Below the pieces are notes generated by a model. The model searched no databases. It was not told the origin of the DNA and was given only the letters and a program-made list of their open reading frames with translations. From a virus, in IMG/VR virus record IMGVR_UViG_3300035182_000347, positions 5,433 to 69,432 of that record: a DNA stretch of 64,000 nucleotides, one strand, 5' to 3'. Below are positions 1-41,832 of this stretch, in pieces (the stretch's first letter is position 1; the number at the start of each line of letters is the position of its first letter). The position numbers and the translations under genes were made by a program.

Positions 1-18
1 TACTATGCCTACGCCGCG

Positions 19-858
19 ATGGCTGCCGCCTACATGGCTGCCATCGACGAACTCCGGGCCGCGCTTGGCCTGGAGACGCACGCGGCTATCGCCGCAGCCG
101 CGCGTGAGGTGCGCAACCAGGCGGCGCGTGACGCTGCCGAAATCCGCGCTACGCAAGAAGTCGCGGCGCAAGCGAAAATCGCGGCGACAGAACAAGCCGC
201 CCGCACGGCGGCGTGTGACGCCATGACCACTCTGTTCGTGGATGGTCGCGGCCAGCGTGTCGCCATCGCCGACAAAACCTCGTATTCAGAGGGGAGGTTT
301 TCAAGCCTTGGCGGCTGGAACGAAGGCGGCGACGTAATTGGCCGCCGCATGAGCATGACGGCCGAAGACGGGCGGGACGTGACCGGCGAGGTCGTAGTTA
401 TGCCCGATGGCGAGTTTCGCCTGGAGCAGCCCTACTCCCGCTCATACCCCAATGGGGGCAAGTCCTGGCACGGTGGCAAGCTGGTGACTGTAGATACCAC
501 CGCCACCAGCGAGTGGCTGCCGGAAGGCGCGGTAGTGCCTGAGTGGCGCTCCGAGTCTCGGGTTGCATGCGACTGGGAAGCAGCCTACCAGGCGCGGGCC
601 GACGAAGTCATGCTTGCCGACCTGGAAGCCATGCCGGAAGCGTGGTTGCAAGGGCGGGCCAGGCTGGTAGAGGCGTTCTCCGCCGACTATTCCGCCACCT
701 ACGGCGGCCAGAACGGGCGGAAATACTCCGTGCGCACAGAATTACGCGCCGACCTGGACGAGTACCAGGCGGTACAACGCGCCGCCGATGCGGAAAAGTC
801 CGCCCGGATGGCATCTTCACCTTTCGCGGCGCTTGCCGCACTACGGAGAGCAGCATGA
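19..858 (+). CDS. hypothetical phage protein (start may lie upstream)
   Basis: 279-aa ORF; stop overlaps next ATG (ATGA at 855-858). Confidence 0.6.
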   Translation: MAAAYMAAIDELRAALGLETHAAIAAAAREVRNQAARDAAEIRATQEVAAQAKIAATEQAARTAACDAMTTLFVDGRGQRVAIADKTSYSEGRFSSLGGWNEGGDVIGRRMSMTAEDGRDVTGEVVVMPDGEFRLEQPYSRSYPNGGKSWHGGKLVTVDTTATSEWLPEGAVVPEWRSESRVACDWEAAYQARADEVMLADLEAMPEAWLQGRARLVEAFSADYSATYGGQNGRKYSVRTELRADLDEYQAVQRAADAEKSARMASSPFAALAALRRAA

Positions 859-1289
859 GCATCATCAATCTGACCCAGCACCCCGCTACGCCGGAGCAAG
901 TCGCGGCGGGCGTATTTGATCTGCCGCCGAATCTGCGCGGAGACCTGTCCGCGCTGCTTACCTTTGACGCCATCCCCGGCGTCGAGGAAATCAAGGTCCG
1001 CGCCCACGACATCGGCCTGATGGCGGCGATGCTCGCCAGTGGTGCGGATCGCACCGAGGAAGTGGACGGCGAGGTAGCGGACACCGACAGGGGCGCGTTT
1101 GCGCTGCAAGCCATGATAGGCGGCGCCCCCTACCTCATGGCCCCGCTTGAATCCGCCTTGCGCGAGAACGGCATTGAGCCGGTGTACGCATTCTCGGTAC
1201 GCGAAAGCGTCGAGCAGACCCAGCCGGATGGCACTGTGCGCAAGGTCAACATCTTCCGCCACGCCGGGTTTGTTCCGGCTGTGGCGTGA
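855..1289 (+). CDS. conserved-looking phage hypothetical protein
   Basis: Start reassigned to MSIINLTQHPAT (ATG 855) after GGAG; coupled to upstream stop. Confidence 0.7.
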   Translation: MSIINLTQHPATPEQVAAGVFDLPPNLRGDLSALLTFDAIPGVEEIKVRAHDIGLMAAMLASGADRTEEVDGEVADTDRGAFALQAMIGGAPYLMAPLESALRENGIEPVYAFSVRESVEQTQPDGTVRKVNIFRHAGFVPAVA

Positions 1290-1471
1290 AGCCCGAAAAA
1301 CCCAAGGCGAAGGGCGGGAAACGTGAAGGGGCTGGCAGGAAATCAAAGGATGGCGCAACCGATCTTGTTCAGGTCGGATTGCGCATCCAGGCAGACCAAA
1401 AGCCGAAGCTATTGCGCCTTGGGGGCAGTATTTGGGTACGCCGGAAGCTGGATGAGGCGGATGAAATCTAA
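1286..1471 (+). CDS. small DNA-binding protein with GGxRxGAGRK motif
   Basis: KGGKREGAGRK followed by a ribbon-helix-helix-like segment. Confidence 0.6.
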   Translation: MKPEKPKAKGGKREGAGRKSKDGATDLVQVGLRIQADQKPKLLRLGGSIWVRRKLDEADEI

Positions 1472-1500
1472 CTCCAACTTAGGCTATAAAGGAGAAGTAC

Positions 1501-1734
1501 ATGGAACCAAAGATTGATATTGAACCAGACGCATGGGCAACGAAAGATATGTGCATAGGGCCGCATTTAGGGAATGTACGTTACGACAAATTACCTATTC
1601 AAAGTTTCAACCCGTTGCAATACACCCATGAAAAACTCTACTCAGAGAAAGCGGTAATTGGCTTGATGAAGGCCGCTTACTATGATGGCTACACGGAACG
1701 AGAGCAGGAATTAAGGGCGGTGCCGAACGCCTGA
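1501..1734 (+). CDS. hypothetical protein
   Basis: AAGGAG SD; C-terminus (VPNA*) runs into attC-like site at 1722. Confidence 0.65.
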   Translation: MEPKIDIEPDAWATKDMCIGPHLGNVRYDKLPIQSFNPLQYTHEKLYSEKAVIGLMKAAYYDGYTEREQELRAVPNA

Positions 1735-1785
1735 ATTAACCGGACGCCGCTTTAGCGGCGGTCCGAGTTGAATGAAATGTTAGAA
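1722..1785 (-). repeat. attC-like recombination site 1
   Basis: Minus strand reads TTCTAAC-ATTTC-ATTCAACTCGGACCGCCGCTAAAGCGGCGTCCGGTTAAT-TCAGGC-GTTCGGC, closely resembling the aadA-type attC as recalled; extrahelical G on + strand. Confidence 0.85.
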
Positions 1786-2026
1786 CTGACGACTGCACAC
1801 TGTTTTAAGGTGGCGTACCACCTGACATTCACGGATCGTATGCCGTGGAGAGTTCGATAAATGACCGGGGAATCCACGTTTACGGTCAGCCGAAATGCCA
1901 GAACGCGAGCCGCAAGGCAGCGCACCAAAACTGGCCGGTGCGGACGATGGCAGTGTGCAGCCATGAGTTCTAACGCGGGTTATCCGCCACCCATGGAAGC
2001 GCGGCAACACTGAAAAGGAAACAACG

Positions 2027-2389
2027 ATGCGCGAACTGAACGAACACAAGATTAACCCCGGCAACGACACGCTCAAGATTACCGTGCTGGACGAACCTGG
2101 GCACGGTGGCGCAAACCACGCCTACGATATTGAGGGCGGCGAGGCGGTGCCGACACACCTGCGCTTTCAAAACGGACCGATCAACGCGGACGGTAACGGC
2201 GTGAATGGCATTACCCATGAGGCGCTGCTCGTGGTGCTGTGCGACCGCCTGCGCGGGTTTCAGGCGGGGCCGTATGCCTGCAAGGCGAACGCTTGCGCGC
2301 TGACACACTTGGAAGAAGCGCAACACTGGTTGCAGCAGCGCACCATCGAGCGTATGCGGCGAGGCGTCGAAGGCACGCATACGGTTTAA
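2027..2389 (+). CDS. tad1: Tad1-like (Acb2/Tad1 family) anti-Thoeris/anti-CBASS nucleotide-signal sponge
   Basis: MREL...HxY...FQNGPI..GVNGIT.E.L..L.DRL..FQ.GP.AC..N..A.T.LEEA..WL..RT..R.RRGVEGT matches the recalled Tad1 pattern; AAGGA SD. Confidence 0.8.
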   Translation: MRELNEHKINPGNDTLKITVLDEPGHGGANHAYDIEGGEAVPTHLRFQNGPINADGNGVNGITHEALLVVLCDRLRGFQAGPYACKANACALTHLEEAQHWLQQRTIERMRRGVEGTHTV

Positions 2390-2447
2390 TTTTGTGGGCC
2401 GCAGATGGCCTTCTCTCTGCGTTTTTCGCAGCCTTTCGGCCAGCGGC

Positions 2448-2505
2448 GGCTAACGCCTGAGTTCAGGCGCGGCCGGAGGCTGTCACCTGGAACGACGGGT
2501 TGTGC
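2448..2505 (-). repeat. attC-like site 2
   Basis: + strand GGCTAAC-gcctga-GTTCAGG...CCTG(G)AAC-gacgg-GTTGTGC, 58 bp. Confidence 0.8.
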
Positions 2506-2532
2506 ATCTTGCGGTGATACGGAGAAAGAAGA

Positions 2533-3303
2533 ATGAACAGAATTGTTTGCCAGTTTTCCTGCGGCGCTGCCTCGGCGGTGGCGACTAAGTTGGCGCTTTC
2601 GCAGTACGGCGACCGCTGCGTGGTGCTGAATGCCTACATTGCAAACGAGCATGAGGACAACCGCCGCTTTGCCGCCGACTGCGAAAAGTGGTTTGGGCGT
2701 ACGATGACCGTACTGCGTGACGAGAAGTACGACGCGGACGCTATCACTGTTTTTGAGCGGGTCGGCTACATCAAGGGGCCGAAGGGCGCGGCATGTACCA
2801 CCAGGATAAAGCGGGGTTTGCTTCGTGCGTTTGCGCAACCCGGAGACGTGCTAGTGCTCGGCTACACGGCGGAGGAACAGTGGCGATTTGACGACTTTGA
2901 AGCCAACTGGCCCGACCTCCCCGTAGTGGCTCCTCTGATCGAGCGCGGACTGACCAAGGAAGACTGTAAGGCGCTTGTTGAGCGCGCAGGGATGGTGCTG
3001 CCGATGATGTACCGGATGGGCTACGACAACGCCAACTGTATTGGCTGCGTAAAGGGCGGGCTTGGGTACTTCCGCGCAATCCGCGATGACTTCCCCGATC
3101 AGTTCGAGCGGTTGGCGCAAGCGGAGGACAAGGTTGCCGAACTGCATGGAACGAACGCCTACATCCTGCGCCACCGATCCGGGCCGCTTAAAGGGCATAG
3201 GTTCCCGTTGCGCGAGTTACCACCGGGTCCAATTGTAAGAAACGAGGCGCTACCGTCATGCGGGTTGTTTTGCGATGCAGCAGAGCAGGAATACGCGGCA
3301 TGA
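2533..3303 (+). CDS. PAPS-reductase-like / adenine nucleotide alpha-hydrolase protein with Cys cluster
   Basis: N-terminal FSCGAASAVA loop, CTTRIK, NANCIGCVK, terminal CGLFC. Confidence 0.7.
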   Translation: MNRIVCQFSCGAASAVATKLALSQYGDRCVVLNAYIANEHEDNRRFAADCEKWFGRTMTVLRDEKYDADAITVFERVGYIKGPKGAACTTRIKRGLLRAFAQPGDVLVLGYTAEEQWRFDDFEANWPDLPVVAPLIERGLTKEDCKALVERAGMVLPMMYRMGYDNANCIGCVKGGLGYFRAIRDDFPDQFERLAQAEDKVAELHGTNAYILRHRSGPLKGHRFPLRELPPGPIVRNEALPSCGLFCDAAEQEYAA

Positions 3304-3310
3304 TTTTGAC

Positions 3311-3399
3311 GCACAACGCTGAGCTAACCGGGCGCGATGAACCGGACGGCTCGAAGTAAACCCGCATTCCGCGCGCTCCGGTTGAGCGCCGTGTTGGAC
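3311..3399 (-). repeat. attC-like site 3
   Basis: GCACAAC-gctga-GCTAACCGG...CCGGTT(G)AGC-gccgt-GTTGGAC. Confidence 0.8.
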
Positions 3400-3409
3400 G
3401 GAGGATGAT

Positions 3410-3691
3410 ATGGATAGACCAATTACATACGGTGAGCTATTCGCGCGCATGAGAATGCCTGCATCTGTTGAGTTCGATGATCCGCGCTGGTGGCGGCCAA
3501 TCGGTATGGAGATTGATCGGCTGCGCGCGGCATTGAAGCCATTTTCCGCACATCCGCAATTCCAAGCGCCAGACGACTGGCCAGTGACGGTAATTGACCG
3601 GAACGAACCGACCGGAGACCCAGTTGCAGGGGTAACCGCTGGAGATTTTCGACGCGCGGCAGAGGCCATGACGCCCAAGTCACCTGACTGA
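3410..3691 (+). CDS. hypothetical cassette protein
   Basis: GGAGG SD directly after attC-like site 3; stop lies inside site 4. Confidence 0.6.
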   Translation: MDRPITYGELFARMRMPASVEFDDPRWWRPIGMEIDRLRAALKPFSAHPQFQAPDDWPVTVIDRNEPTGDPVAGVTAGDFRRAAEAMTPKSPD

Positions 3692-3734
3692 CGCGGCCTT
3701 ATCGCGGCAGGTCAGGTGGACTTCCGGGTTATGC
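3666..3734 (-). repeat. attC-like site 4 (left core degenerate, GAC instead of AAC)
   Basis: gcccaa-GTCACCTGAC...GTCAGGTG(G)AC-ttccgg-GTTATGC; left arm shares ACGCCCAAGTCAC with site 7. Confidence 0.7.
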
Positions 3735-3758
3735 CGCGCGAATACTACAAAGAAAGGA

Positions 3759-4052
3759 ATGGGCATGAAGATTCAAGGTCCGGTGGAAGTGGAATTGAAA
3801 ATCAGCATCACAAACGAAGAACAACATGGAGTCGTAACTATCAGCATGGGGAAAGGCAGCTACCCAACAGAAGGAGAACTGCGCGAACGGGTAGTTCAGT
3901 TTGAAAATGAAGAAATGCCGACAGGATTCCGCTTGATGACCAAGCGCGAATGGTGGGACTCTGTTTGCCCTCCGTCCTACGACGAGGACGAGGATGGTGT
4001 GCGCAACAAGACGCGCTTTGCTGTTCCAGGTGGCGATGACTACGACGCATAA
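3759..4052 (+). CDS. hypothetical acidic cassette protein
   Basis: AAGGA SD; TAA stop lies within GCATAAC core of site 5. Confidence 0.7.
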   Translation: MGMKIQGPVEVELKISITNEEQHGVVTISMGKGSYPTEGELRERVVQFENEEMPTGFRLMTKREWWDSVCPPSYDEDEDGVRNKTRFAVPGGDDYDA

Positions 4053-4115
4053 CACTGAATGTGAGGCGACTGGCGTGGATTTATGCGGCAGGTCGACTCG
4101 ACCGTACTGTTACCA
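4047..4115 (-). repeat. attC-like site 5
   Basis: GCATAAC...GTGAGGCGAC...GTCGACTC(G)AC-cgtact-GTTACCA. Confidence 0.7.
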
Positions 4116-4126
4116 CGGAGAATGGA

Positions 4127-4402
4127 ATGGAACATATATTTAGCGACAAAATCGTTACAGCGAAGAAGCGCCATCACTGCGACGCAAGCGAACAGTGGCG
4201 ACGAGCTGGCTTCACCATTGCCGACTGCGAAACGGACGAGCAGCGGCTGATGGTTGCCGCTGCCGAGGTAGACAACTGGCGCATCTTGCCTGGGCAAGCC
4301 TACCGTAGGGTGATCGGAATTCACGAAGGCGGATTGAGCACCTACAGGGCGAGGCCGGGCATGGACGCAGTGTGCAGCGACCTTGATATATGGGACGAGT
4401 GA
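4127..4402 (+). CDS. hypothetical cassette protein (HxCD motif)
   Basis: GGAG SD; AKKRHHCD and ILPGQAYRR resemble small phage Zn-finger-like proteins. Confidence 0.65.
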   Translation: MEHIFSDKIVTAKKRHHCDASEQWRRAGFTIADCETDEQRLMVAAAEVDNWRILPGQAYRRVIGIHEGGLSTYRARPGMDAVCSDLDIWDE

Positions 4403-4406
4403 GATT

Positions 4407-4463
4407 GCCTAACGCCTGAATTCAGGGGCGGCGAAGCCGTCCCGCTGGATTGACGTGTTAGGG
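4407..4463 (-). repeat. attC-like site 6
   Basis: GCCTAAC-gcctga-ATTCAGGGGCGGCGAAGCCGTCCCGCTG(G)ATT-gacgt-GTTAGGG, 57 bp. Confidence 0.8.
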
Positions 4464-4482
4464 GCGGAAATTTGGAGAAGAA

Positions 4483-4989
4483 ATGGGATACGGAGCACAC
4501 GAAAAACCGAACGAAGGCGCGACCAATATTTGGCTCACACCACCGCGCATTATTGAAATGCTTGGGCCTTTTGACCTTGACCCATGCGCAGCACCGGAGC
4601 CGCGACCGTGGCCGACAGCACACGCGCACTATGCCGAGGCAGACGGTGATGGGCTGCAACGGGAATGGCATGGGGTTGTGTGGGTGAACCCGCCATACGG
4701 CGACAAGGCCGAGGCGTGGCTGCACAGGCTGGCTAGGCACGGAGAGGGCATCGCGCTGGTTTTCGCCAGGACGGAAACGGCATGGTTTCAGCGCGTAGCG
4801 CGGCACGGCTGGCTTTTGTTTTTCCCGTCAGGGCGGCTGACCTTTCACAAACCGAATGGAGAGCGCGGGGTCGGTAATGCAGGGGCACCGAGCGTTTTCC
4901 TTGCCATTGGCGAGGAAAGCAAACTGCGCCTGAGAAGCTGCGGGATGGAAGGGTTCTTCTGCGAGCCTGAGTTTTTCGCGACGCAATGA
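4483..4989 (+). CDS. phage DNA N6-adenine methyltransferase (Dam-like family)
   Basis: WLTP, FDLDPCA, DGL..W, WVNPPY, ARTET.WF, GRL.F motifs. Confidence 0.9.
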   Translation: MGYGAHEKPNEGATNIWLTPPRIIEMLGPFDLDPCAAPEPRPWPTAHAHYAEADGDGLQREWHGVVWVNPPYGDKAEAWLHRLARHGEGIALVFARTETAWFQRVARHGWLLFFPSGRLTFHKPNGERGVGNAGAPSVFLAIGEESKLRLRSCGMEGFFCEPEFFATQ

Positions 4990-5079
4990 CGCCCAACGCA
5001 GGATATACACCAAGTGACCAGTAACACCCGAAAACACAGAATATAGGACACCAGTAAGCAACAGAACCAGCAGCGAAGA

Positions 5080-5145
5080 ATGAACAATGAACTGATGTTT
5101 TCGAGCAAGACCGATATGTTGTCAACACCACAAGCGTTCTTTTGA
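5080..5145 (+). pseudogene. N-terminal remnant of a second phage Dam-type methylase
   Basis: Translates MNNELMFSSKTDMLSTPQAFF*, resembling the recalled FSSK.D.W.TPQ.FF start of phage Dam proteins. Confidence 0.6.
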
Positions 5146-5150
5146 CAGCA

Positions 5151-5205
5151 ATAAAAACATTTGATGAAGAATCTTCTTGTGTTACCGGAAACGGTGGTCT
5201 ATAGT
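5151..5205 (+). promoter_or_regulatory. sigma70-type early promoter with upstream repeated operator-like element
   Basis: TTGTGT(5177)-17 nt-TATAGT(5200); 28-bp upstream block shared with 8208-8235. Confidence 0.65.
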
Positions 5206-5234
5206 TACACCATCAACAACGCACGGAGCGCAAA

Positions 5235-5984
5235 ATGAAAGTCGAAATCAAAAGTCGTTTTACAGGCGAGGTTCAATTCGCACTTGAGTGCGAAGGGAAC
5301 ACTGTGGCCATTACGCTGGCCGAGGCCGTAAGGTTAGGCACCAACCTGTATGGCGCATACCTTAGCGGCGCGGACCTTAGCGGATCGTCACTGGGGGGCG
5401 CAAATCTTCACTGTGCGAACTTGATGGGCGCTAGCCTTATGGACGCGGACTTGATGTCCGCGGACCTCTATGGATCTGATCTCAGCAGTGCGTCCCTTGA
5501 GGACGCGAATCTCAATGGCGCGAACCTTAGGTCTGCGAATCTTTATGGGGCCTACATGAGGTCCGCGAAACTTCGCAATGCAAACCTTAGCAATACGAAC
5601 CTTATGGACGCGGACTTGATGTCCGCGGATTTGGTTGCCGCCAATTTGTACGGTGCGGACTTTGTCAGTGCGAACCTATCTTGGGTGGATTTGCAGGACG
5701 CAAACATTGATGGCGCGGACCTTAATGGCGCGATCCTTAAGGGTGCCAATCTTGATGGCGCGTCCATCGGGGACGCTGGTAAGCTGACTGGCGAAAGCCC
5801 GTATTTCACTGTTATCTTTGGAGTTAATGCGGAACGCATTGAGTCGTTTCGCACAGAGAAGGGGATTTTTATCCGCAGCGGGTCATTCTTTGGCACTGCG
5901 GCGGATTTCCGGGGCAACAACCCCGCCGGCGGAGTGTACCAGGCCGCCTTGGACCTGGTTGAAGCCCATTATCGGCTGGTCTGA
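5235..5984 (+). CDS. pentapeptide repeat protein
   Basis: Long run of A(D/N)Lxx repeats; IKSRFTG N-terminus and IRSGSFFGT C-terminus. Confidence 0.9.
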   Translation: MKVEIKSRFTGEVQFALECEGNTVAITLAEAVRLGTNLYGAYLSGADLSGSSLGGANLHCANLMGASLMDADLMSADLYGSDLSSASLEDANLNGANLRSANLYGAYMRSAKLRNANLSNTNLMDADLMSADLVAANLYGADFVSANLSWVDLQDANIDGADLNGAILKGANLDGASIGDAGKLTGESPYFTVIFGVNAERIESFRTEKGIFIRSGSFFGTAADFRGNNPAGGVYQAALDLVEAHYRLV

Positions 5985-6033
5985 AGATTTCCGGGACCGC
6001 GTTCTCGCGGCCGGTTTCAAGTTTGGATTGGAG

Positions 6034-6234
6034 ATGAGAGTGAAAACTTCAAAGTATAGGGTGGCGGCTCTGCGAAAGCGGGCCGCCGCGATTGGCCTGA
6101 AGCGCCGTGAAATCTATTCGCATGAGGATGACTGGCCAGCAATTAAAGCGCTGGCAGAATATCTTATAAAACGCAGAGAGAAGGCCGCGAAGGTGGCGGA
6201 TAACGCCAATTTAACCATTACCAATTTCACTTAG
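6034..6234 (+). CDS. small basic hypothetical protein
   Basis: RVAALRKRAAAIGLKRREIY; start uncertain (ATG 6034 or GTG 6040). Confidence 0.55.
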   Translation: MRVKTSKYRVAALRKRAAAIGLKRREIYSHEDDWPAIKALAEYLIKRREKAAKVADNANLTITNFT

Positions 6235-6242
6235 GATCAGAC

Positions 6243-6698
6243 ATGACCATCACGCTTGAGGCCATCAAGGCAGAGCAGAAACGCATTGCCGCGATGATTT
6301 CGGAGTTTGAGAAGCAACCCGCTGCATTGGCATTCCCGATCAGCATCCGATTTCCCGATCTTGCGGAGGGCGAAAAGTTTGTCGGCGTCATCATCAGCGC
6401 GGACGGTAGCCGCAAGCATGCGGTGATTCTGCTGCCGGGCGAAGCCGATATCGCCAACTGGAAAACGCAACACAAGTGGGCAGAGAGCATAGGCGGCGAA
6501 CTATTTGACCGTGTTGAAGGCGCTCTGCTGTTCGCCGCGATGAAGGATGAATTCAAGCCCGAATGGTATTGGACTTGCGAGAAGCACGAAGTCGACTCGG
6601 CCTATGCCTGGGATCAGGACTTCGGACACGGCTACCAGTACGGCCACGATACGAGCTACAAGTTCAGAGCCCGAGCAGTCCGCAGGGTTTCACTCTGA
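6243..6698 (+). CDS. DUF1566/C-type-lectin-fold protein
   Basis: WAESIGGEL, WYWT, AYAW.QDF..G.Q, RARAVRR C-terminus. Confidence 0.8.
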   Translation: MTITLEAIKAEQKRIAAMISEFEKQPAALAFPISIRFPDLAEGEKFVGVIISADGSRKHAVILLPGEADIANWKTQHKWAESIGGELFDRVEGALLFAAMKDEFKPEWYWTCEKHEVDSAYAWDQDFGHGYQYGHDTSYKFRARAVRRVSL

Positions 6699-6769
6699 AC
6701 ACCATCGAAGTCTCACTATTGACGTAACTTCCCCCGCCATAAAAGACGGGGTTCTAGGAGCAAAATCTG

Positions 6770-7198
6770 ATGAACAACTGGAACTTCACCGGAAACATCG
6801 GCAAGGATGCCGAAACGCGATTCATCCAAAGCGGCGAGGCTGTCGTTCAATTCTCGGTCGGTGTGAAATCTGGCTACGGCGACAAAGCCACAACCACATG
6901 GGCGCGTTGCACCATGTGGGGCAAGCGTGGAGAGTCTGTCGCGCAATACCTCACCAAAGGATCGCTTGTCGGAATCTCCGGCGAGGTCACGCTGCGCGAA
7001 TTCACCAACAAGGAAGGCAACAAGCAGACGACGCTGGAAGTGCGCGTGAATGATCTGACGCTTATGGGAGGCCGAAAGGACGGCGGTAGCTCACCAGATA
7101 ACGAGTCACACCAGTCAAGCGCTCTATCTAGGTCAAGGCCGCAGCCAGCAAGCGGCGGCAATGCGTTTGATGATCTAGATTCAGATATCCCGTTCTGA
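6770..7198 (+). CDS. ssb: single-stranded DNA-binding protein
   Basis: GNIGKDAE, YLTKGSLV.ISG, acidic DSDIPF tail. Confidence 0.95.
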   Translation: MNNWNFTGNIGKDAETRFIQSGEAVVQFSVGVKSGYGDKATTTWARCTMWGKRGESVAQYLTKGSLVGISGEVTLREFTNKEGNKQTTLEVRVNDLTLMGGRKDGGSSPDNESHQSSALSRSRPQPASGGNAFDDLDSDIPF

Positions 7199-7247
7199 CA
7201 ATTACCTCAATGCCTCAAAAACGCAGAGAGAAGGCCGCGAAGGTGGC

Positions 7248-7312
7248 GGCTAACGCCCAAGTCACAGGCGCGGCGGCATCATCGACGCGTCCTGTAGACT
7301 GACGTGTTATGC
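7248..7312 (-). repeat. attC-like site 7
   Basis: GGCTAAC-gcccaa-GTCACAGG...CCTGT(A)GAC-tgacgt-GTTATGC. Confidence 0.8.
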
Positions 7313-7324
7313 ATTCGGGGTGAT

Positions 7325-7690
7325 ATGCCATACCTAAACGAAGACGGGACGATAGACACATGGAAAGGCTACATACGCAAATGCGGACACTGCGGAGCGA
7401 TAGAAAAGGTATTTGATGAGGCCACAGACCAAAACGTAGGACGATATGAAGAAATCTACGCATTGGAAGCTACGATATGCAAATTGTTCAGTGGGACGCG
7501 CGGGCCGGGGTTGCCAAATGTTTTGTGCGTTGAGTGCATGACGAGGCTGATGCCAAACCTGCACAAGCTGAGGGATGCAATTGAACTAGATATTTTCGTA
7601 AATAGACTGAAAGGTGCAATAAATGAAAAACGAAAGCAAGGAACTAAAGACAACCGGACAACTACGGACGATGCTTGCGAATGCTGCTAA
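7325..7690 (+). CDS. hypothetical protein with two CxxC pairs
   Basis: CGHC and CVEC; starts 13 nt after site 7. Confidence 0.6.
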   Translation: MPYLNEDGTIDTWKGYIRKCGHCGAIEKVFDEATDQNVGRYEEIYALEATICKLFSGTRGPGLPNVLCVECMTRLMPNLHKLRDAIELDIFVNRLKGAINEKRKQGTKDNRTTTDDACECC

Positions 7691-7862
7691 AGGTGTACTC
7701 AACGGAGACTTGGACATCGAGCGTGCCACGGCGCTGCACAAGCTGGCGAAGAACATCAGCGAGAGCCTGTACAGCGAAACCAAGATAGCAATGTTCAGCC
7801 ATGAGATCGGCAGCGCCATTCCGAAGATGGGAGACCTACCGCTTGGCGGCAGCGATGAATAA
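7623..7862 (+). CDS. hypothetical phage protein
   Basis: 79 aa; TAA stop lies in GAATAAC cassette end. Confidence 0.65.
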   Translation: MKNESKELKTTGQLRTMLANAAKGVLNGDLDIERATALHKLAKNISESLYSETKIAMFSHEIGSAIPKMGDLPLGGSDE

Positions 7863-7875
7863 CGCAGGAAACGAA

Positions 7876-8184
7876 ATGACAACGCCTATCGCACAAGGTC
7901 CGGATGAAAATGTGGAGCAGGACGCCGCCCGTTACCGCTGGTTGCGTGACCGGATGGAGGTGCTCTACAAAGAAACGATGTCTGGCCGGGAACCCCGCGC
8001 CACGCTGGCTATGCGCATTGGGCATGAATTTCTGGATAGCAAAATGCGCCCGGCCGCTGGGTGGATGGCCACCCTATATTTCGACGAATGCCGAGAGAAG
8101 GTGGACGCTGCAATAGACGATGCCATGAAGATGGCTAACAACCAAGCTAAGTGTCCTGGCTGCAGTTTTCCCGGTCCCGCTTGA
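7876..8184 (+). CDS. hypothetical protein (DAARYRWLR motif, Ead/Ea22-like)
   Basis: DAARYRWLRD...DAAIDDAM is common in phage early genes; runs into site 8. Confidence 0.65.
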   Translation: MTTPIAQGPDENVEQDAARYRWLRDRMEVLYKETMSGREPRATLAMRIGHEFLDSKMRPAAGWMATLYFDECREKVDAAIDDAMKMANNQAKCPGCSFPGPA

Positions 8185-8198
8185 GCGCAGAGTTAGCC
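8133..8198 (-). repeat. attC-like site 8
   Basis: GGCTAAC-aaccaa-GCTAAG...CTT(G)AGC-gcaga-GTTAGCC; cores perfectly complementary. Confidence 0.75.
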
Positions 8199-8207
8199 GC
8201 GACATCC

Positions 8208-8261
8208 ATAAAAACATTTGAGGAAGAATCTTCTTTCGAATCTTTGAATTATACGTATAAT
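8208..8261 (+). promoter_or_regulatory. sigma70-type early promoter, second copy
   Basis: TATAAT at 8256-8261; upstream block 27/28 identical to 5151-5178. Confidence 0.65.
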
Positions 8262-8285
8262 TAAATCGTCAACAACGAACAAGGA

Positions 8286-8525
8286 ATGAAAATGACGTCA
8301 ATGTTCAAAACCCAAGAGCATCCAATGATGGTTGAGGCCACCGCTCATATTTTTACCTTGCTTAACGGTAAGGTTTATGAGTTTGTGAACATAGACGGAA
8401 CAGACCAATTTGCGTTGTCTGGATCGTCCAACTATTACGACGCCGCCCAGTTTGGGCGCGCCAAAGAAAATGCGATCTCCAAGGGGGCAGTGTTCACCGA
8501 ATCTCGCGGCTGGACCTTCAAGTAA
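8286..8525 (+). CDS. hypothetical protein
   Basis: AAGGA SD downstream of promoter. Confidence 0.6.
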   Translation: MKMTSMFKTQEHPMMVEATAHIFTLLNGKVYEFVNIDGTDQFALSGSSNYYDAAQFGRAKENAISKGAVFTESRGWTFK

Positions 8526-8573
8526 GTAAACAACCCGCTCATAGATGGGCGGGAAACAAATCAGGAGAACACT

Positions 8574-8948
8574 ATGACCGCTTATACCCCATACGTCTAT
8601 GGCGCAAGCAGCACGACTTTTGAAGCCGAAAATGCCTGCGAAGTGGCTGAAAAGATTATGCGCTCGAACAGAATGCGAGAGGTGCTTGGCCTAAACGGCC
8701 TAGCAGGATACAACTTGCATGGCTTGAAGCTTGAAAGGGCTGTGATCACCAAGGACGGACTGACTCGTAAGCTGGTCATCCAGTGGCAGGCGATGCAGAC
8801 ACTGCCGCAAGAGCAAAATGGCGAGCATAACTCGATAGAAACCAAGACCGTTTATATGGAGCACGGTATCGACAACACGCCAGAAACAGAATGGCGTTGG
8901 GTGAAGGACGGAAAAGGCAAGCTAAATGCTCAAATTTTCCAATCCTAA
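8574..8948 (+). CDS. hypothetical protein
   Basis: AGGAG SD, 124 aa. Confidence 0.65.
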   Translation: MTAYTPYVYGASSTTFEAENACEVAEKIMRSNRMREVLGLNGLAGYNLHGLKLERAVITKDGLTRKLVIQWQAMQTLPQEQNGEHNSIETKTVYMEHGIDNTPETEWRWVKDGKGKLNAQIFQS

Positions 8949-9198
8949 AATCGGTGGCTCTCGCAATGGCGCAGGCCTGGCAACCGACGCTGCCGGCCTG
9001 AAAACCGCAAAGCACACCGTAACCCTGGACGTAGTGACGGTGGATCGCCTGAAGGAATTGGGTGCGGGAAATCTGTCTCGCGGAATACGACAAGCCGCTC
9101 GGCGACTGGCGGATAAGGCAAAAAGTGAGCCGACCAACCCGATGCAGCCCGCAATGCCAAGCATCGGCTGGCAAAGCAACACAAGGAGAGAACCATGA
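8926..9198 (+). CDS. small DNA-binding protein (GGxRxGAG motif)
   Basis: GGSRNGAG...VTLD...LGAGNLSRGIR. Confidence 0.6.
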   Translation: MLKFSNPKIGGSRNGAGLATDAAGLKTAKHTVTLDVVTVDRLKELGAGNLSRGIRQAARRLADKAKSEPTNPMQPAMPSIGWQSNTRREP

Positions 9199-10016
9199 GT
9201 AAGGTGAACGCATCAGACGTTTCAACCGAAGTCGAGGCTGAAATCGGCCTTCCGGTGTTGGTCGACAACGCCGTGGATTTGGTATTTAGAGGACCGGACG
9301 GGGCCATCGATCAGGCCCTTGCTACAGCCGACCGCTCAGCGGCCATGAACGCAGGCGACCGTTCGAAGGCCACGAACATAGGCGTCCGCTCGGCTGCCGT
9401 GAACATGGGTGACCATTCGGTTGCCATTAACGCAGGCGACCGTTCGACGGCAATAAACACTGGAGACCACTCAGAGGCCATGAACATGGGCTACCAATCG
9501 TCGGCCATGAATATGGGAGAATTTTCTGCGGCCACGAACACGGGAGAACAATCTGTGGCCATGAACATTGGCCGCCACTCAGCGGCCATGAACACGGGCT
9601 ACTGGTCGACGGCCATGAACGCGGGCGAATATTCGGAGGCCACGAACACTGGCAGCTACTCGGCTGCCGTGAACACTGGCGACCAATCGGTTGCCATGAA
9701 CGCAGGCTACCGTTCGACATCCATGAACACGGGGGAATACTCAACGTCCAAGAACGAAGGCGACCAGTCGTTTGCCCTGAACACGGGCTACCACTCGGTA
9801 GCCGAGGTGATGGGCACCGGTTCGGTCGCGGCATCCCTTAGCGCCCAAGGGCGCGCCCGCGCTGCCGCTGGCGGCGCAATCGTCCTCTGCTACCGCGACG
9901 AGATTAGCGGTCGCCTAATCAATATCCGCGCCAGCATAGTTGGCGAAAATGGCGTCAAGCCGGACACCTGGTACGTTCTCGACGCCGCTGGCGGATTTAT
10001 CGAGGTTACCGAATGA
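9195..10016 (+). CDS. 11-aa repeat protein (NTGxxSxAxxx)
   Basis: Roughly 14 tandem 33-nt repeats; C-terminal VGENGVKPDTWY; AAGGAG SD. Confidence 0.8.
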   Translation: MSKVNASDVSTEVEAEIGLPVLVDNAVDLVFRGPDGAIDQALATADRSAAMNAGDRSKATNIGVRSAAVNMGDHSVAINAGDRSTAINTGDHSEAMNMGYQSSAMNMGEFSAATNTGEQSVAMNIGRHSAAMNTGYWSTAMNAGEYSEATNTGSYSAAVNTGDQSVAMNAGYRSTSMNTGEYSTSKNEGDQSFALNTGYHSVAEVMGTGSVAASLSAQGRARAAAGGAIVLCYRDEISGRLINIRASIVGENGVKPDTWYVLDAAGGFIEVTE

Positions 10017-10103
10017 AAACGAACTGCGGGCAGACGACGAAGGCAACGAGCAATGCCAGTCCTATCTGACAGCGGGCCTGATTGAATACGCGGAGGAAGA
10101 GGA

Positions 10104-10469
10104 ATGCCAGTTTCTGAACTGATTGACGATCTACGCGGCCGGATAAACCCGGTATACGCGTCCCAGCCCGGAACAGAAAGCCATGAGCGCAGGCTGTGTG
10201 CCGAGGCACTGGAGGCGCAGCGCGACAGAATCAACGAACTTGAAGGAGCGATAGGCCGCGGCTACCGAATGCTGCTATCTGAGCCTGACACGAAAGGCGC
10301 TCTATTCAAAACCGAGAACATCCTGCGGGAAGCGCTGGAGCTGGCAGCCAAAAACCTGATCTCCGTCAGAGGCCGGCACCATACCGAGCAGGCGTACAAG
10401 CTGCCGCATGAGGCGGTTGAGAAAGTAGGCACCCTGCCGGAGTCGCAACGTAATGCCAAATCGTCGTGA
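10104..10469 (+). CDS. hypothetical protein
   Basis: GAGG SD, 121 aa. Confidence 0.55.
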   Translation: MPVSELIDDLRGRINPVYASQPGTESHERRLCAEALEAQRDRINELEGAIGRGYRMLLSEPDTKGALFKTENILREALELAAKNLISVRGRHHTEQAYKLPHEAVEKVGTLPESQRNAKSS

Positions 10470-10484
10470 GGATACTGTAGCGCC
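10463..10484 (+). promoter_or_regulatory. putative late promoter (variant GTCGTGAG), leaderless
   Basis: GTCGTGAG-GA-TACTGT-6 nt-ATG(10485). Confidence 0.65.
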
Positions 10485-10988
10485 ATGCCAAAAATAGTTA
10501 GATTCGACAAGGATGAAGCCCTTACCGACTGGAAAACCGGGAAATATACGGTACGCGATCTTGCGTCTAAATATAAGGTTTCACCGGGCACAATCCATAA
10601 GCTCGTTGTCGGAGTAGACAAGTCACTAGCCCCTTTAATAAACAAAGCAGTTGAAATAAAACAAGAACTTACAAATTTTAATGAACGGGAGATAAACAGA
10701 TTTGAACAAGAAGTAAGCGAGCGTACAAAACACATTCAATTCTTCACCAGCGCTAACGCACTGATTGCCAAGACGGTCATCAATAAAGTGCAGGCGGATG
10801 GCGATGAAGCCAGCTATCAGGACTTGAATGCAGCGGCCAATGCCATCACCAAGGCCCAAGAGAATGTTCTGGGCAAGCAGCCGGATAGTGTGGTCAATGT
10901 TGGGGTGACGCAGCGGACGGTGATTCAGTCGGCAGATCGGGTGCGCGAGATTCGACAAAAGCTGATAAGGGACATCTGTGGCGAGTAG
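10485..10988 (+). CDS. terS: terminase small subunit
   Basis: N-terminal HTH (TVRDLASKYKVSPGTI); overlaps terL. Confidence 0.75.
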   Translation: MPKIVRFDKDEALTDWKTGKYTVRDLASKYKVSPGTIHKLVVGVDKSLAPLINKAVEIKQELTNFNEREINRFEQEVSERTKHIQFFTSANALIAKTVINKVQADGDEASYQDLNAAANAITKAQENVLGKQPDSVVNVGVTQRTVIQSADRVREIRQKLIRDICGE

Positions 10989-12534
10989 CCTTTCGGAAGA
11001 GGATGAGATTCTGCGGGTAATGCTGCTGGATGACTTCCAGCTATTCGTCGAGTATTTCTTCCGGGCGCAGTACGGCCGGCGCTTTGTGGTGGCCGAGCAT
11101 CATGCGCAGATTACTGAGGCATTGACGCGGGTGGCGGCCGGAGAGTGCAAGAGGCTGATTATCAATATCCCGCCTCGCGCCGGAAAGACTGAGATTGCCG
11201 TCAAGATGTTCGTCGCTTGGTGCCTGGCGCACAATCCGGCGGCGAAGTTCATCCACCTTTCGTACTCCGATGACCTAGCACTGGACAACTCCAGCTCGAT
11301 TCGGGACGTGGTGAAGTCTGCCGAGTATCAGAAGCTCTTTCCGATTGCGCTCAAGGCTGACTCTGACAGCAAAAAGAAGTGGCTGACCAATGAGGCGGGC
11401 GGCATGTACGCGACGGCGGCAGGGGGCGCGATTACCGGATTCGGAGCGGGATTGATGCACCGAATCAGGACGGGAACGGAATGCGCGGCGGATGGATTTG
11501 GCGGCGGAATTTTAATTGACGACGCCTTGAAGCCAGATGATGCGTACTCGGAAACCGTGCGCGGCCGTGTTAATAATCGCTTCAACAACACCATCGCCAG
11601 CCGGGTGAATAGCCCGGATACGCCGATTGTCGTGGTCATGCAGCGGCTGCACGAAAACGACCTGACCGGCTATCTACTGGCCGGTGGAAGTGGCGAGAAA
11701 TGGGAGCACCTGTGCATTCCGGCGATCAATTCGCATGGTGAGTCAATTTGGCCAGACAAGTGGTCGATTGAACGGCTGCGGCAGATGGAAGCGGCAGACC
11801 CTTATACCTTCGCCGGGCAGTACATGCAGGTGCCGTCGCCACTTGAGGGGGGATTATTCAAGCCTGACAACATCGCCATCATTCTGGTATTGCCGGTTGA
11901 GTCAATCGAATGGGTACGCGGTTGGGACTTCGCCAGCACCACGACGGGCGACTGGACGGCGGGCGTAAAGTTGGGCAGATTGCGCGAGGGCCGATTGATT
12001 ATCGGCGATGTGGTGCGCATTCGCGTGGGTCCGGACGAACGCGATGCCGCGCTACTACATACGGCGGCGCGAGATGGCTATGAGTGCAAGCAATCCATCC
12101 CCCAAGACCCTGGGCAAGCCGGCGTAACGCAGGTCAAGTACCTCTTGCGCCAACTGGCCGGGTACAGCGTCAAGTCAAGCCCGGAGACGGGTAACAAGGT
12201 GGTGCGCGCCGAGCCGGTAGCGAGTCAGGTCAATGTCGGCAACGTGATGATGCTCAAGGCCGAGTGGAATTCGGCGTTGATCAACGAAATGCGCATGTTC
12301 CCCAATGGTACATGGGACGATCAGGTCGACGGTCTGAGCCGGGCGTTCGGTCTGCTGATCGGGCGCAACCCGTCAGAGATATTCATCCCTGACACCAGCA
12401 TCAAGGATGTCATTGCGGCGGCTGGGACGTGTGGGCGGTGCGCGTCATTCGGTGATGGCATGTGTAAAGAGAACTTCGGACTACAGGTAGGCGCATCGGA
12501 TATTGGGTGCGGGATGTTCATTGCGGGGTGGTAG
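10978..12534 (+). CDS. terL: terminase large subunit
   Basis: LIINIPPRAGKT Walker A, ILIDD Walker B, VMQRLHE.D, RGWDFA and DDQVD nuclease motifs. Confidence 0.95.
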   Translation: MASSLSEEDEILRVMLLDDFQLFVEYFFRAQYGRRFVVAEHHAQITEALTRVAAGECKRLIINIPPRAGKTEIAVKMFVAWCLAHNPAAKFIHLSYSDDLALDNSSSIRDVVKSAEYQKLFPIALKADSDSKKKWLTNEAGGMYATAAGGAITGFGAGLMHRIRTGTECAADGFGGGILIDDALKPDDAYSETVRGRVNNRFNNTIASRVNSPDTPIVVVMQRLHENDLTGYLLAGGSGEKWEHLCIPAINSHGESIWPDKWSIERLRQMEAADPYTFAGQYMQVPSPLEGGLFKPDNIAIILVLPVESIEWVRGWDFASTTTGDWTAGVKLGRLREGRLIIGDVVRIRVGPDERDAALLHTAARDGYECKQSIPQDPGQAGVTQVKYLLRQLAGYSVKSSPETGNKVVRAEPVASQVNVGNVMMLKAEWNSALINEMRMFPNGTWDDQVDGLSRAFGLLIGRNPSEIFIPDTSIKDVIAAAGTCGRCASFGDGMCKENFGLQVGASDIGCGMFIAGW

Positions 12535-32212: not shown

Positions 32213-32234
32213 GTCGTGACGAGATCATGGCGTG
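32213..32234 (+). promoter_or_regulatory. putative late promoter, leaderless
   Basis: GTCGTGAC-GA-GATCAT-6 nt-ATG(32235). Confidence 0.75.
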
Positions 32235-41192: not shown

Positions 41193-41804
41193 ATGTCGTA
41201 TGAACTGCTGCTGAATGACCTAGAGGCGCTGCAAAAGAGCTACGCCGCCGATGAAGACGATAAGGCCATTCGGGCCGCCGCTGAAGGTAACGACGAGGAA
41301 CTTGATGAAGATGGCAATCCCATCGCCAAGAAGCCTGCCGCCAAACCCGATGGCGACGAAGGCAAGCCGTTTGGTAAATCATTCACGTTGATTGCTGAGG
41401 ATGGCACAGAAGCCGAAGCGATTGATGGCACTGATCTGATCAAGTCGCTGCAAGATGAGGTGGTCGCACTGGGCCAATCCGCCAAGGATGAAAAAGAAGA
41501 CCTCACCAAGTCAATCACCATTCTGTCTAATGTCATCAAGAGCCAGGGGTCATTGATCAAGTCGCTGCAAGAGGATGTCGCCAAGCTGTCGAATCAAGGT
41601 GCCGGCCGCAAGTCGATCATGGCCCCTACGCAAGACATGGCGAAGAGCATGCAGCCCATCAGTACCGAAACCTTCATGATGAAAGCCAATGCCGCCTTCA
41701 ATGCCGGGCGGATCAGTGGCAAGGAATTGACCGTGTGCGATGTATCCATGCGCCACAACGAATCCATTGAACCGGCGCTAATCAGCAAGATTTTTGCCGA
41801 ATAA
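41193..41804 (+). CDS. scaffold-like protein
   Basis: AGGAG SD; acidic coiled coil with many LxKS motifs; between protease and MCP. Confidence 0.75.
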   Translation: MSYELLLNDLEALQKSYAADEDDKAIRAAAEGNDEELDEDGNPIAKKPAAKPDGDEGKPFGKSFTLIAEDGTEAEAIDGTDLIKSLQDEVVALGQSAKDEKEDLTKSITILSNVIKSQGSLIKSLQEDVAKLSNQGAGRKSIMAPTQDMAKSMQPISTETFMMKANAAFNAGRISGKELTVCDVSMRHNESIEPALISKIFAE

Positions 41805-41832
41805 ACGATTTACAACCTTCAGGACAATCAAA

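Follow-up and report, generated by a model that had tools for sequence, protein, structure and literature searches.

The window, a 64,000-nt stretch of viral DNA, spans bases 5433 to 69432 of the 69,432-base linear IMG/VR virus record IMGVR_UViG_3300035182_000347, which is estimated to be 75% complete. In its early region lies a gene (positions 2027-2389, + strand) for a predicted member of the Tad1 family of immune-signal sponges. This gene is very probably the cargo of an integron-type cassette, situated in a phage array of attC-like sites and moved by recombination of the type performed by integron integrases (IntI). Positions below are those of the window unless marked as contig positions, and loci used for comparison are designated by L numbers.

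The open reading frame (ORF) of 120 amino acids was confirmed on the + strand.

2015-2019, + strand: AAGGA, resembling a ribosome-binding site, 7 nt 5' of the ATG; the leader is kept in L004, L005 and L008.
2027-2389, + strand: predicted Tad1-family sponge gene (120 amino acids), from phmmer against PDB, PHROG, tblastn, the AlphaFold model and Foldseek.

The original prediction, made from the sequence alone, had called this ORF Tad1-like from a string of motifs, and all of them were present in the translation: FQNGPI at residues 47-52, GVNG at 58-61, RLRGFQ at 74-79 and C85..N88..A91.T93.LEEA..WL..RT..R..RGVEGT, with RGVEGT at 112-117. Comparison with PDB chains by phmmer gave six Tad1 sequences, which matched residues 23-119 of 120 with E values from 2.6e-17 (CbTad1) to 1.5e-16 (CmTad1). 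The six include CbTad1 (7UAV/7UAW/8SMD/8KBE-H) and entries 8KBB-D, which are CmTad1 according to the Foldseek titles. The Tad1 chains were followed by a 230-residue 'gp184' (8Y6V) at E 2.8e-11, and the next match was at E >= 0.1. At the level of sequence, the resemblance to Tad1 was far above chance.

The protein also matched PHROG 2428 (function not annotated; E 2.1e-32), and a precomputed PF24729.3 match (Acb2/Tad1 hairpin) was recorded in 120 of the 120 close homologues listed. Tad1 relatives were numerous: among 90% clusters, 2,024 of 2,031 candidates reached E <= 1e-5, and among 50% clusters 4,089 representatives reached E <= 0.001. In tblastn, 179 phage records contained Tad1 relatives, of which that of Agrobacterium phage OLIVR5 matched over 97% of the length. 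Between the window gene and its relatives, nucleotide identity was 84-89% and protein identity 92-99%, which fits purifying selection. Assignment to Acb2 was tried and rejected. No Acb2-named molecule was present in the 21 PDB sequence matches (E <= 10) or in the listed Foldseek matches, and the only tie of the protein to Acb2 was the common Pfam hairpin domain.

An AlphaFold model built on a 50-sequence alignment had a predicted local distance difference test score (pLDDT) of 92.8 and a predicted template modelling score (pTM) of 0.81; a single-sequence model (pLDDT 33) was discarded. The predicted fold has four strands, with an N-terminal antiparallel sheet, and two long C-terminal helices. 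In a Foldseek search of PDB, 20 matches had E <= 0.001. The rows listed above rank 21 were all CbTad1 or CmTad1 chains (8KBF, 8SMD, 7UAW, 8KBB and others), with query TM scores of 0.77-0.84, and the next match, which was not Tad1, had an E of 0.26. The TM score to CbTad1/CmTad1 was 0.83, and the identity to CbTad1 was 34%.

In CbTad1, the changes F82A/N92A and R109A/R113A abolished binding of gcADPR and 2',3'-cGAMP, and R90A and T97A abolished binding of cA3, according to passages of bioRxiv 10.1101/2023.11.15.567273. The index of the 125-residue 7UAV chain is the numbering of that paper plus 1, and agreement was checked on all six residues. In the PDB phmmer alignment, CbTad1 F82, N92, R109 and R113 correspond to F78, N88, R105 and R109. 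All four residues of the gcADPR/cGAMP pocket were kept in the window protein, and they were invariant or almost so in the 50-sequence alignment. Of the two cyclic-trinucleotide contacts, T97 was kept, as T93, and R90 was changed to K86. T93, E96/E97 and W101 align to CbTad1 T97, E100/E101 and W105, the counterparts of T95, Q98/E99 and W103 at the CmTad1 hexamer interface. The structure comparison that the original prediction suggested as a check therefore gave a match to the Tad1 fold with its gcADPR/cGAMP pocket residues in place, and sequence, fold and pocket residues agreed with the identity proposed. On sequence and model, the ORF product is to be regarded as a Tad1-family member, whose ligands we infer from its homologues.

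The protein might share the Tad1 fold and do another job, such as binding CBASS nucleotides only, binding another signal, or not acting as a sponge at all. Its 34% identity to CbTad1 leaves room for this, and the cyclic-dinucleotide spectrum varies among Tad1 homologues (passages of bioRxiv 10.1101/2023.11.15.567273). Confidence in the model was lowest at the loop of residues 51-60 (block mean pLDDT 73), and CbTad1 R90 is replaced by lysine. The conserved gcADPR/2',3'-cGAMP residues, four of four, and the matches at the hexamer-interface counterparts argue against such a change of function, which we considered unlikely.

A scan of viral contigs gave 68 loci with Tad1 relatives. GTTAGCC preceded Tad1 in all of the eight close loci compared in detail (L004-L010 and L013; Tad1 94-99% identical in amino acids), and GGCTAAC, 7/7 complementary to GTTAGCC, was found 3' of Tad1 in seven, the eighth (L008) having GGCTAAA. 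Beyond the boxes, the sequence and the neighbouring genes differed. When window 1-12000 was compared with all loci by blastn, homology was confined to the interval from 1962/1976 through 2402-2453; outside it, only a fragment of PAPS reductase (L068) and a single attC (L005) matched. When the + strand ORFs of six loci with near-identical Tad1 were compared with the contig by tblastn, Tad1 was the sole common ORF except in L011, in which three overlapping frames matched the gene at 19.0-20.1 kb of the window, on the opposite strand, at 38-41%. As far as sequences can tell, the Tad1 cassette is a module present in otherwise unrelated phages.

The original prediction had noticed GTTATCC at 1979-1985 and GGCTAAC at 2448-2454, which are 6/7 complementary, as flanks of the gene, and both were there. 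A single match of this kind between two 7-mers separated by about 470 nt is no more than chance would give; it is meaningful because the relatives carry matching boxes at the same places. Since L006, L007 and L013 have Tad1 and the attC core 5' of it in common and differ in the flanks of both sides, the cassette consists of the core, GTTxxxx, the gene and xxxxAA. By this layout the Tad1 cassette extends over 1974-2453 and retains an 18-nt remnant of its own attC, and the intact site at 2448-2505 is that of the PAPS-reductase cassette. The earlier suggestion of a cassette with a collapsed attC was thus supported and refined: the collapsed site is the upstream one (1968-1985), not that at 2448. 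The parts were as follows, with crossover between AA and C of the box (AA/C) and with scores from the covariance model R1 described below.

1722-1785, + strand: attC-like site E5 (GCCGAAC ... GTTAGAA), belonging to the cassette 1728-1973 by the AA/C rule; R1 57.0 bits, E 3.6e-13, seed.
1728-1973, + strand: cassette upstream of Tad1, with ends GTTAGAAC (1779) and GTTCTAAC (1967-1974); variable box positions 4/4 complementary.
1968-1985, + strand: collapsed attC of the Tad1 cassette, TTCTAAC-GCGG-GTTATCC (18 nt); R1 11 bits, E 0.86.
1974-2453, + strand: Tad1 cassette between AA/C crossover points, from blastn homology (starts 1962/1976, ends 2402-2453), the boxes and the crossover rule.
2398-2449, + strand: 3' stem-loop between the Tad1 stop codon and GGCTAAC, from folding and inverted repeats.
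2448-2505, + strand: complete attC-like site E7 (GGCTAAC ... GTTGTGC); R1 60.8 bits, E 3.5e-14, seed.

Where the window has 1968-1985, relatives have a complete attC of 56-76 nt ending in GTTAGCC. It was complete in L004-L008 and L013, and another partial collapse was found at the same joint in L010-L012. In relatives the 3' stem differed and the layout was the same. The first box of E7 closes the Tad1 cassette, and its core belongs to the next (PAPS-reductase) cassette; its GTTGTGC is 7/7 complementary to GCACAAC at 3311. The upstream cassette 1728-1973 was strongly self-paired, with 24-nt inverted arms at 1779-1802 and 1951-1974 that are 88% complementary; none of its ORFs was convincing, and Rfam gave no match. 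L010-L012 have a cassette with identical end boxes that encodes an ORF of 68 residues. A 40-nt direct repeat, 98% identical, was also seen at 6168-6207 and 7218-7257, ending in GG(A/C)TAAC boxes, and a 20-nt inverted copy of this 6168/7217 repeat lies at 2407-2426, inside the stem-loop 3' of the Tad1 stop codon.

Imperfect hairpins of 57-95 nt were present in many intergenic regions. Each has xxxxAAC at one end and GTTxxxx at the other. Separated from these boxes by about 5 nt on either side are two arms, the second with one extra base, which enclose a variable stem-loop. By the description in passages of PMC5027507, an attC is 57-141 nt long and folds into an imperfect hairpin; it has boxes of the types RYYYAAC and GTTRRRY as well as L boxes, and the hairpin includes a variable loop, an extrahelical base and an unpaired spacer. 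These features were found in 1722-1785, 2448-2505 and eight more sites of the contig; several of the boxes did not follow the purine/pyrimidine consensus strictly.

R1 was built from 14 seed sites (seven in the contig and seven in related loci) and a hand-drawn structure of 20 pairs. RNAalifold on the first MAFFT alignment, which was not structure-aware, gave no pairs, and the sites were then realigned and the structure set by hand. A hairpin scan recovered only some sites, together with matches inside genes, and R1 was used instead. In the R1 alignment 77.9% of the cells pair, versus 27-53% when the partners were slid. Compensatory changes were present in pairs 21-63, 23-61 and 24-59 (4-5 double changes each), and the covariation score was reached by 1 of 500 shuffles, a figure that is not a probability.

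In the contig, R1 gave ten matches at E < 0.01, seven of them seeds, all on the + strand and extending from contig 1668 to window 7315. The three non-seed matches were window 3308-3402, L072 5033-5159 and L072 2669-2742. Weaker + strand matches were seen in the window at 1965-1988 (11 bits), 3663-3737 (8.7 bits) and 8130-8201 (10.9 bits), and past 8201 the contig contained no match better than E 0.4. Rfam gave no match at E <= 1 in window 1-12000. Sites downstream of the Tad1 cassette included the following.

3311-3399, + strand: attC-like site E8; R1 23.2 bits, E 4.6e-4, non-seed.
3666-3734, + strand: weak attC-like site ending in GTTATGC; R1 8.7 bits, E 3.5; fold -20.5 kcal/mol.
4047-4115, + strand: weak attC-like site (GCATAAC ... 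GTTACCA); fold -13.6 kcal/mol; no R1 match at E <= 10; contig joint 4050 to 4995.
4407-4463, + strand: attC-like site E10, the top-scoring copy; R1 77 bits, seed.
7248-7312, + strand: attC-like site E13; R1 45.4 bits, seed.

The site at 4407-4463 scored 77 bits on the + strand and 8.6 on the - strand, showing that the attC-like element is asymmetric. According to passages of PMC5027507, the bottom strand of attC is cut by IntI in the R' box, between A and C of 5'-AAC-3', and the extrahelical G is near L''. Both the AAC cut position and the position of the extrahelical G fit the + strand of the window sites.

Tyrosine recombinases were present in three of the five related records searched. Those of the L005 and L011 contigs were tried as IntI and rejected as ordinary phage integrases (TIGR02249 29 and 28 bits). 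The L013 integrase, of 338 amino acids, matched TIGR02249 over the full profile length with 465.9 bits (cut-off 265). Its gene starts at 10822, on the same strand as Tad1 (10001-10363) and 458 nt downstream of it, with one 357-nt cassette between. Identical IntI was found in five viral contigs and relatives with 67%, 59% and 46% identity in three more, and true IntI stands beside arrays in L013/L148, L151, L153 and L155. The L013 contig also has a primase/helicase, a repressor-like protein, a DHH phosphoesterase, RusA and a methylase, and a second contig with the identical integrase runs into a reverse transcriptase and a tail-like protein. From this gene content the carrier was taken to be a temperate phage. 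In L152 (region 5480-8709, - strand), a reverse transcriptase (PHROG 1423, E 1.5e-93) was observed next to a tail-like protein in an IntI-bearing phage, a region that looks like a diversity-generating retroelement.

Two of the IntI-bearing contigs differed by a swap of array contents. To the left of the array, a stretch of 7,189 nt was 99.9% identical between L148 (the L013 contig) and L151; to its right the two agreed 100% over 1,335 nt, intI included. Between these flanks, L148 has 2,749 nt (7189-9937) with four detected attC and Tad1, versus 355 nt (9583-9937) in L151. On the left, identity extended through TGCTAAC-G and then ended. On the right, it began at AAC of GGCCAAC (L148) or GCTTAAC (L151), 60 nt before the intI ATG. 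This AAC is likely to be the attI crossover point. IntI would be the agent of the exchange.

Complementarity of cassette ends was scored in 26 cassettes from four arrays. The opening GTTxxxx and the closing xxxxAAC of one cassette were complementary at 3.08 of the 4 variable positions, versus 1.90 within one site and 1.95 for all against all, and the observed sum was higher than in any of 20,000 permutations. The ends of the Tad1 cassette were complementary at 4/4 positions in L005 and L013 (GTTAGCC/GGCTAAC) and at 3/4 in the window (GTTATCC); those of the PAPS-reductase cassette (GTTGTGC/GCACAAC) and of the attI-adjacent L013 cassette (GTTGGCC/GGCCAAC) were complementary at 4/4. Complementary ends of one cassette are the known footprint of circular cassette insertion. 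The integron-cassette nature first proposed for the Tad1 segment was thus upheld by IntI beside the same cassette in L013, by swaps at AAC boxes and by end complementarity. Public metagenome contigs on window 1-9000 also contained joints at AAC boxes, 3318 to 4995, 4050 to 4995 (in two runs) and 7256 to 7866. With matched sides of 24-42 nt, they give only hints of alternative array orders in which whole cassettes are skipped.

The orientation of the sites relative to intI was as usual for integrons. In 72 bacterial integron loci, found with the phage IntI as query (best 64% identity), R1 gave nine matches at E <= 0.1, and nine of nine lie upstream of intI on its strand. In eight viral IntI loci the same was true of 11 of 12 matches. 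In the 68 Tad1 loci, R1 gave 21 matches at E <= 0.01 (seven of them seeds), all on the Tad1 strand. These came from ten loci only (L004-L008, L010-L013 and L019), L005 having ten matches and L009 none. The remoter Tad1 genes, including those of L014 and L015 that are 92% identical, were in ordinary gene contexts without attC-like sites.

The hairpins might instead be phage regulatory elements (terminators, processing sites or PeSL-like elements), with modules shuffled by homologous recombination at short motifs and without IntI. All hairpin sites lie between co-directional genes, the window contig has no integrase, and sigma-70-like promoters come after several of the sites, TTGACA-16-TACAAT at contig 5174-5201 being the best. 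Promoter-like sites (3 versus 5.1) and terminator-like sites (13 versus 13.3) were, however, no commoner than in shuffled sequence. Homologous recombination also does not account for the complementary variable positions at cassette ends, for the exact AA/C breaks, including the one 60 nt before the intI start codon, for true IntI by the arrays of L013/L148, L151, L153 and L155, or for the nine of nine R1 matches upstream of bacterial intI on the same strand. We judged this explanation to be very improbable. An identification of the sites as terminator or PeSL-type elements was rejected on the AA/C breaks, the end complementarity, IntI and the lack of enrichment over shuffled sequence.

The array might also not be phage DNA, if the contigs were chimeric or were mislabelled bacterial chromosomal integrons. 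The contigs are metagenomic, assemblies break at repeats, and IMG/VR labels are predictions. The sizeable genes of the window were nevertheless all on the + strand, and the array runs on that strand straight into the genes for the terminase (small and large), the portal and the major capsid protein. The late genes, which also include an internal virion or lytic protein by homology, contained these landmarks.

10978-12534, + strand: large terminase, by homology.
12563-14779, + strand: portal, by homology.
41794-43341, + strand: major head protein, by homology.

A contig from a public run spans window 1-2038 without difference. The IntI contigs carry primase/helicase, repressor, RusA and reverse transcriptase by a tail-like protein, and identical IntI with the same flanks occurs in five separate viral contigs. 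When 12 window proteins were compared with the 72 bacterial integron loci, none matched. We therefore gave the suggestion of non-phage DNA next to no weight and retained that of a phage-borne integron-type array.

Several observations weigh against this interpretation. One is the orientation of the genes. Cassette genes of textbook integrons are on the strand opposite to intI, as seen in bacterial L087, in which four Pfam-supported cassette genes (Zn_protease, PsiE, DUF454 and HicB) are opposite to the strand of R1 and intI. All 12 ORFs of the phage arrays that have support from homology were on the R1 (attC bottom) strand, the reverse of the canonical arrangement. These were Tad1 and the PAPS-reductase-like, Dam, pentapeptide and SSB genes in the window; Tad1, RNA ligase and methylase in L005; DHH, DUF7736 and Tad1 in L013; and Dam in L153. 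Only homology-supported ORFs were used, as ORF strand tallies are noisy in GC-rich DNA. With the sites oriented as usual to intI and the ORFs on the R1 strand, the genes are reversed in their cassettes and point toward intI. Since they face attI, a promoter on the attI side (Pc) cannot serve them, and they would be transcribed from phage promoters. The nearest strong promoter-like site (the TTGACA-16-TACAAT above, 11/12 positions) follows a site and lies about 2.3 kb upstream of Tad1.

Also on this side, the 69,432-base contig, estimated to be 75% complete, contained no tyrosine recombinase (PF00589) at E <= 1. Without an integrase in the contig, the array is of the CALIN type (cluster of attC lacking an integron integrase), and activity can at most be presumed for the window's own array. 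The site of the Tad1 cassette at 1968-1985 has lost its L boxes and variable loop, and other window sites are weak or degenerate: 3666-3734 had an E of 3.5, 4047-4115 was undetected by R1, and 4992 and 6199 are half sites. The R1 matches in bacterial integrons were weak, at 19-32 bits. The end complementarity given above includes four hand-picked weak sites (window 1965-1988 and 3663-3737, and L013 7986-8078 and 10393-10466). For the protein, the PF24729 match in a Pfam scan was 17.6 bits, under the 27-bit cut-off, and lysine (K86) stands in place of the CbTad1 cyclic-trinucleotide contact R90, a conservative change.

The array phenomenon extended well past the window phage, to judge from sequence matches. 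In a follow-up search of 79 viral loci (L156-L234), R1 gave 123 matches at E <= 0.001 in 50 of them. Two or more matches (2-9 sites) were present in 32 of the 79, and in 31 of these 32 they were all on one strand. A 16-nt pattern of the 3' arm occurred in at least 120 viral stretches, a number near chance expectation by rough estimate.

The early region, a run of small genes, comprises roughly the first 10,000 positions of the window and the 5.4 kb of contig that precede it. Its named genes are a PAPS-reductase-like gene, a Dam-type methylase, a pentapeptide-repeat protein and SSB. The pentapeptide-repeat and SSB genes lie in an array stretch bounded by half-sites alone. A megablast of window 1-12000 against a phage collection gave no match.

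2454-3316, + strand: PAPS-reductase-like cassette (ORF 2533-3303); PHROG 424, E 7e-48; box positions 4/4 complementary.
4483-4989, + strand: Dam-type N6-adenine DNA methyltransferase cassette gene; PF05869 37.4 bits; PHROG 111.

Elsewhere in the window, the ORF at 9195-10016 contains 14 tandem 27-nt units that encode nonapeptide repeats rich in N, G, S and A. The structural module has two giant ORFs, at 23273-30643 (2,456 amino acids) and 32232-37271 (1,679 amino acids).

The ORFs at 3410, 3759, 4127, 7325 and 7623 had no Pfam or NCBIfam match. Among 3410, 3759, 4127 and 7325, the sole PHROG match was that of the 4061/4127 ORF to PHROG 13613 (function not annotated), and none of the four gave anything below E 0.01 against PDB sequences. 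By association with the annotated cargo, which is of counter-defence type (Dam and N6/N4 methylases and an RNA ligase, here and in relatives), these five small neighbours may be anti-defence candidates, as the original prediction had proposed. Related arrays carried an RNA ligase (PF09414) and an N6/N4 DNA methylase in L005 (9693-11302), a Dam methylase in L153, and a DHH phosphoesterase (array region 8383-9195) and a DUF7736 protein in L013. Methylases are classic anti-restriction cargo. The RNA ligase, N6/N4 methylase and DHH phosphoesterase could plausibly be counter-defence enzymes. A protein of 94-98 amino acids was also noticed by eye in contig 2400-2684, upstream of the window, and in L153 6795-7091, where it is in the cassette adjoining the IntI of 67% identity. 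This seems to be a second cargo that unrelated contigs have in common.

A mechanism can be proposed from homology and array anatomy. The Tad1-family product would bind and hide the Thoeris signal gcADPR and so shield the phage, and would probably bind CBASS signals as well (cGAMP isomers and perhaps cyclic trinucleotides). The gene would be the cargo of cassette 1974-2453 in an early-region CALIN-type array of at least ten attC-like sites. The cassette would have reached unrelated phages by IntI-type recombination at AA/C of the attC boxes, and its own attC would have collapsed later in the window phage, fusing it to the upstream cassette.

A broader scheme is possible, and we offer it tentatively. 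Phages may run their own integrons as platforms for the exchange of counter-defence genes, with IntI-bearing temperate phages and integrase-less phages sharing one pool of cassettes (Tad1, DNA methylases, RNA ligase and small ORFs). The bottom-strand genes and intI would be read by early transcription, and ORFs 3410, 3759, 4127, 7325 and 7623 would be new anti-defence proteins.

Tad1 as integron cargo would join two known things, a counter-defence protein and phage attC arrays. The same cassette in unrelated phages, its IntI neighbour and the swaps at AAC suggested a gene-by-gene trade of counter-defence by site-specific recombination. If so, one could turn to phage arrays for a catalogue of candidate anti-defence genes. 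The system is testable, with the integrase, the attI region and the sites all known. The reversed gene orientation relative to attC needs an explanation of its own, which bears on how cassettes arise.

Compared with the known Tad1 proteins (CbTad1 7UAV/7UAW/8SMD/8KBE-H and CmTad1 8KBB-D), the window protein is alike in length class, fold, the four pocket residues and phage origin. It differs from CbTad1 in being 34% identical, in having K for R90 and in being carried on an integron-type cassette, and it is known here from sequence and model.

PeSL cassettes of T4-type phages are small genes flanked by repeated stem-loops, in which promoter-stem-loop units are recombined by homology. Both they and the window array are plastic phage regions shuffled among relatives, whereas the window type has AAC/GTT boxes, complementary ends and an integrase in relatives.

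Bacterial sedentary chromosomal integrons reportedly contain anti-phage defence cassettes. The platform is the same, with small single-gene cassettes, and the window array differs in standing on the opposite side of the conflict, in gene orientation and in its phage carrier. Anti-defence genes have been recorded in integron cassettes called by IntegronFinder in bacterial genomes (AntiDefenseFinder survey, passages of PMC11370490), and these passages describe no link of Tad1 to integrons and no phage-borne arrays. No paper that connects Tad1 with integrons, or anti-defence cargo with phage arrays, came up in a literature search that did not extend to the supplementary tables of PMC9892861 and PMC11370490.

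Known phage arrays of attC are described in passages of PMC9892861 (Qi et al. 2023), which report integrons and 17 CALINs in phages, with methyltransferase cargo and mostly without an integrase, and recombination of phage attC by IntI1. The window array resembles those CALINs in its attC sites, its methyltransferase cargo and the missing integrase. It differs from them, as far as those passages go, in carrying a known signal sponge as cargo, in having a related phage with IntI, attI and array together and evidence of a recent swap, and in the position of all homology-supported ORFs on the attC bottom strand. Against the 17 CALINs reported there, co-oriented arrays of one attC type were present here in 32 of the 79 sampled viral loci.

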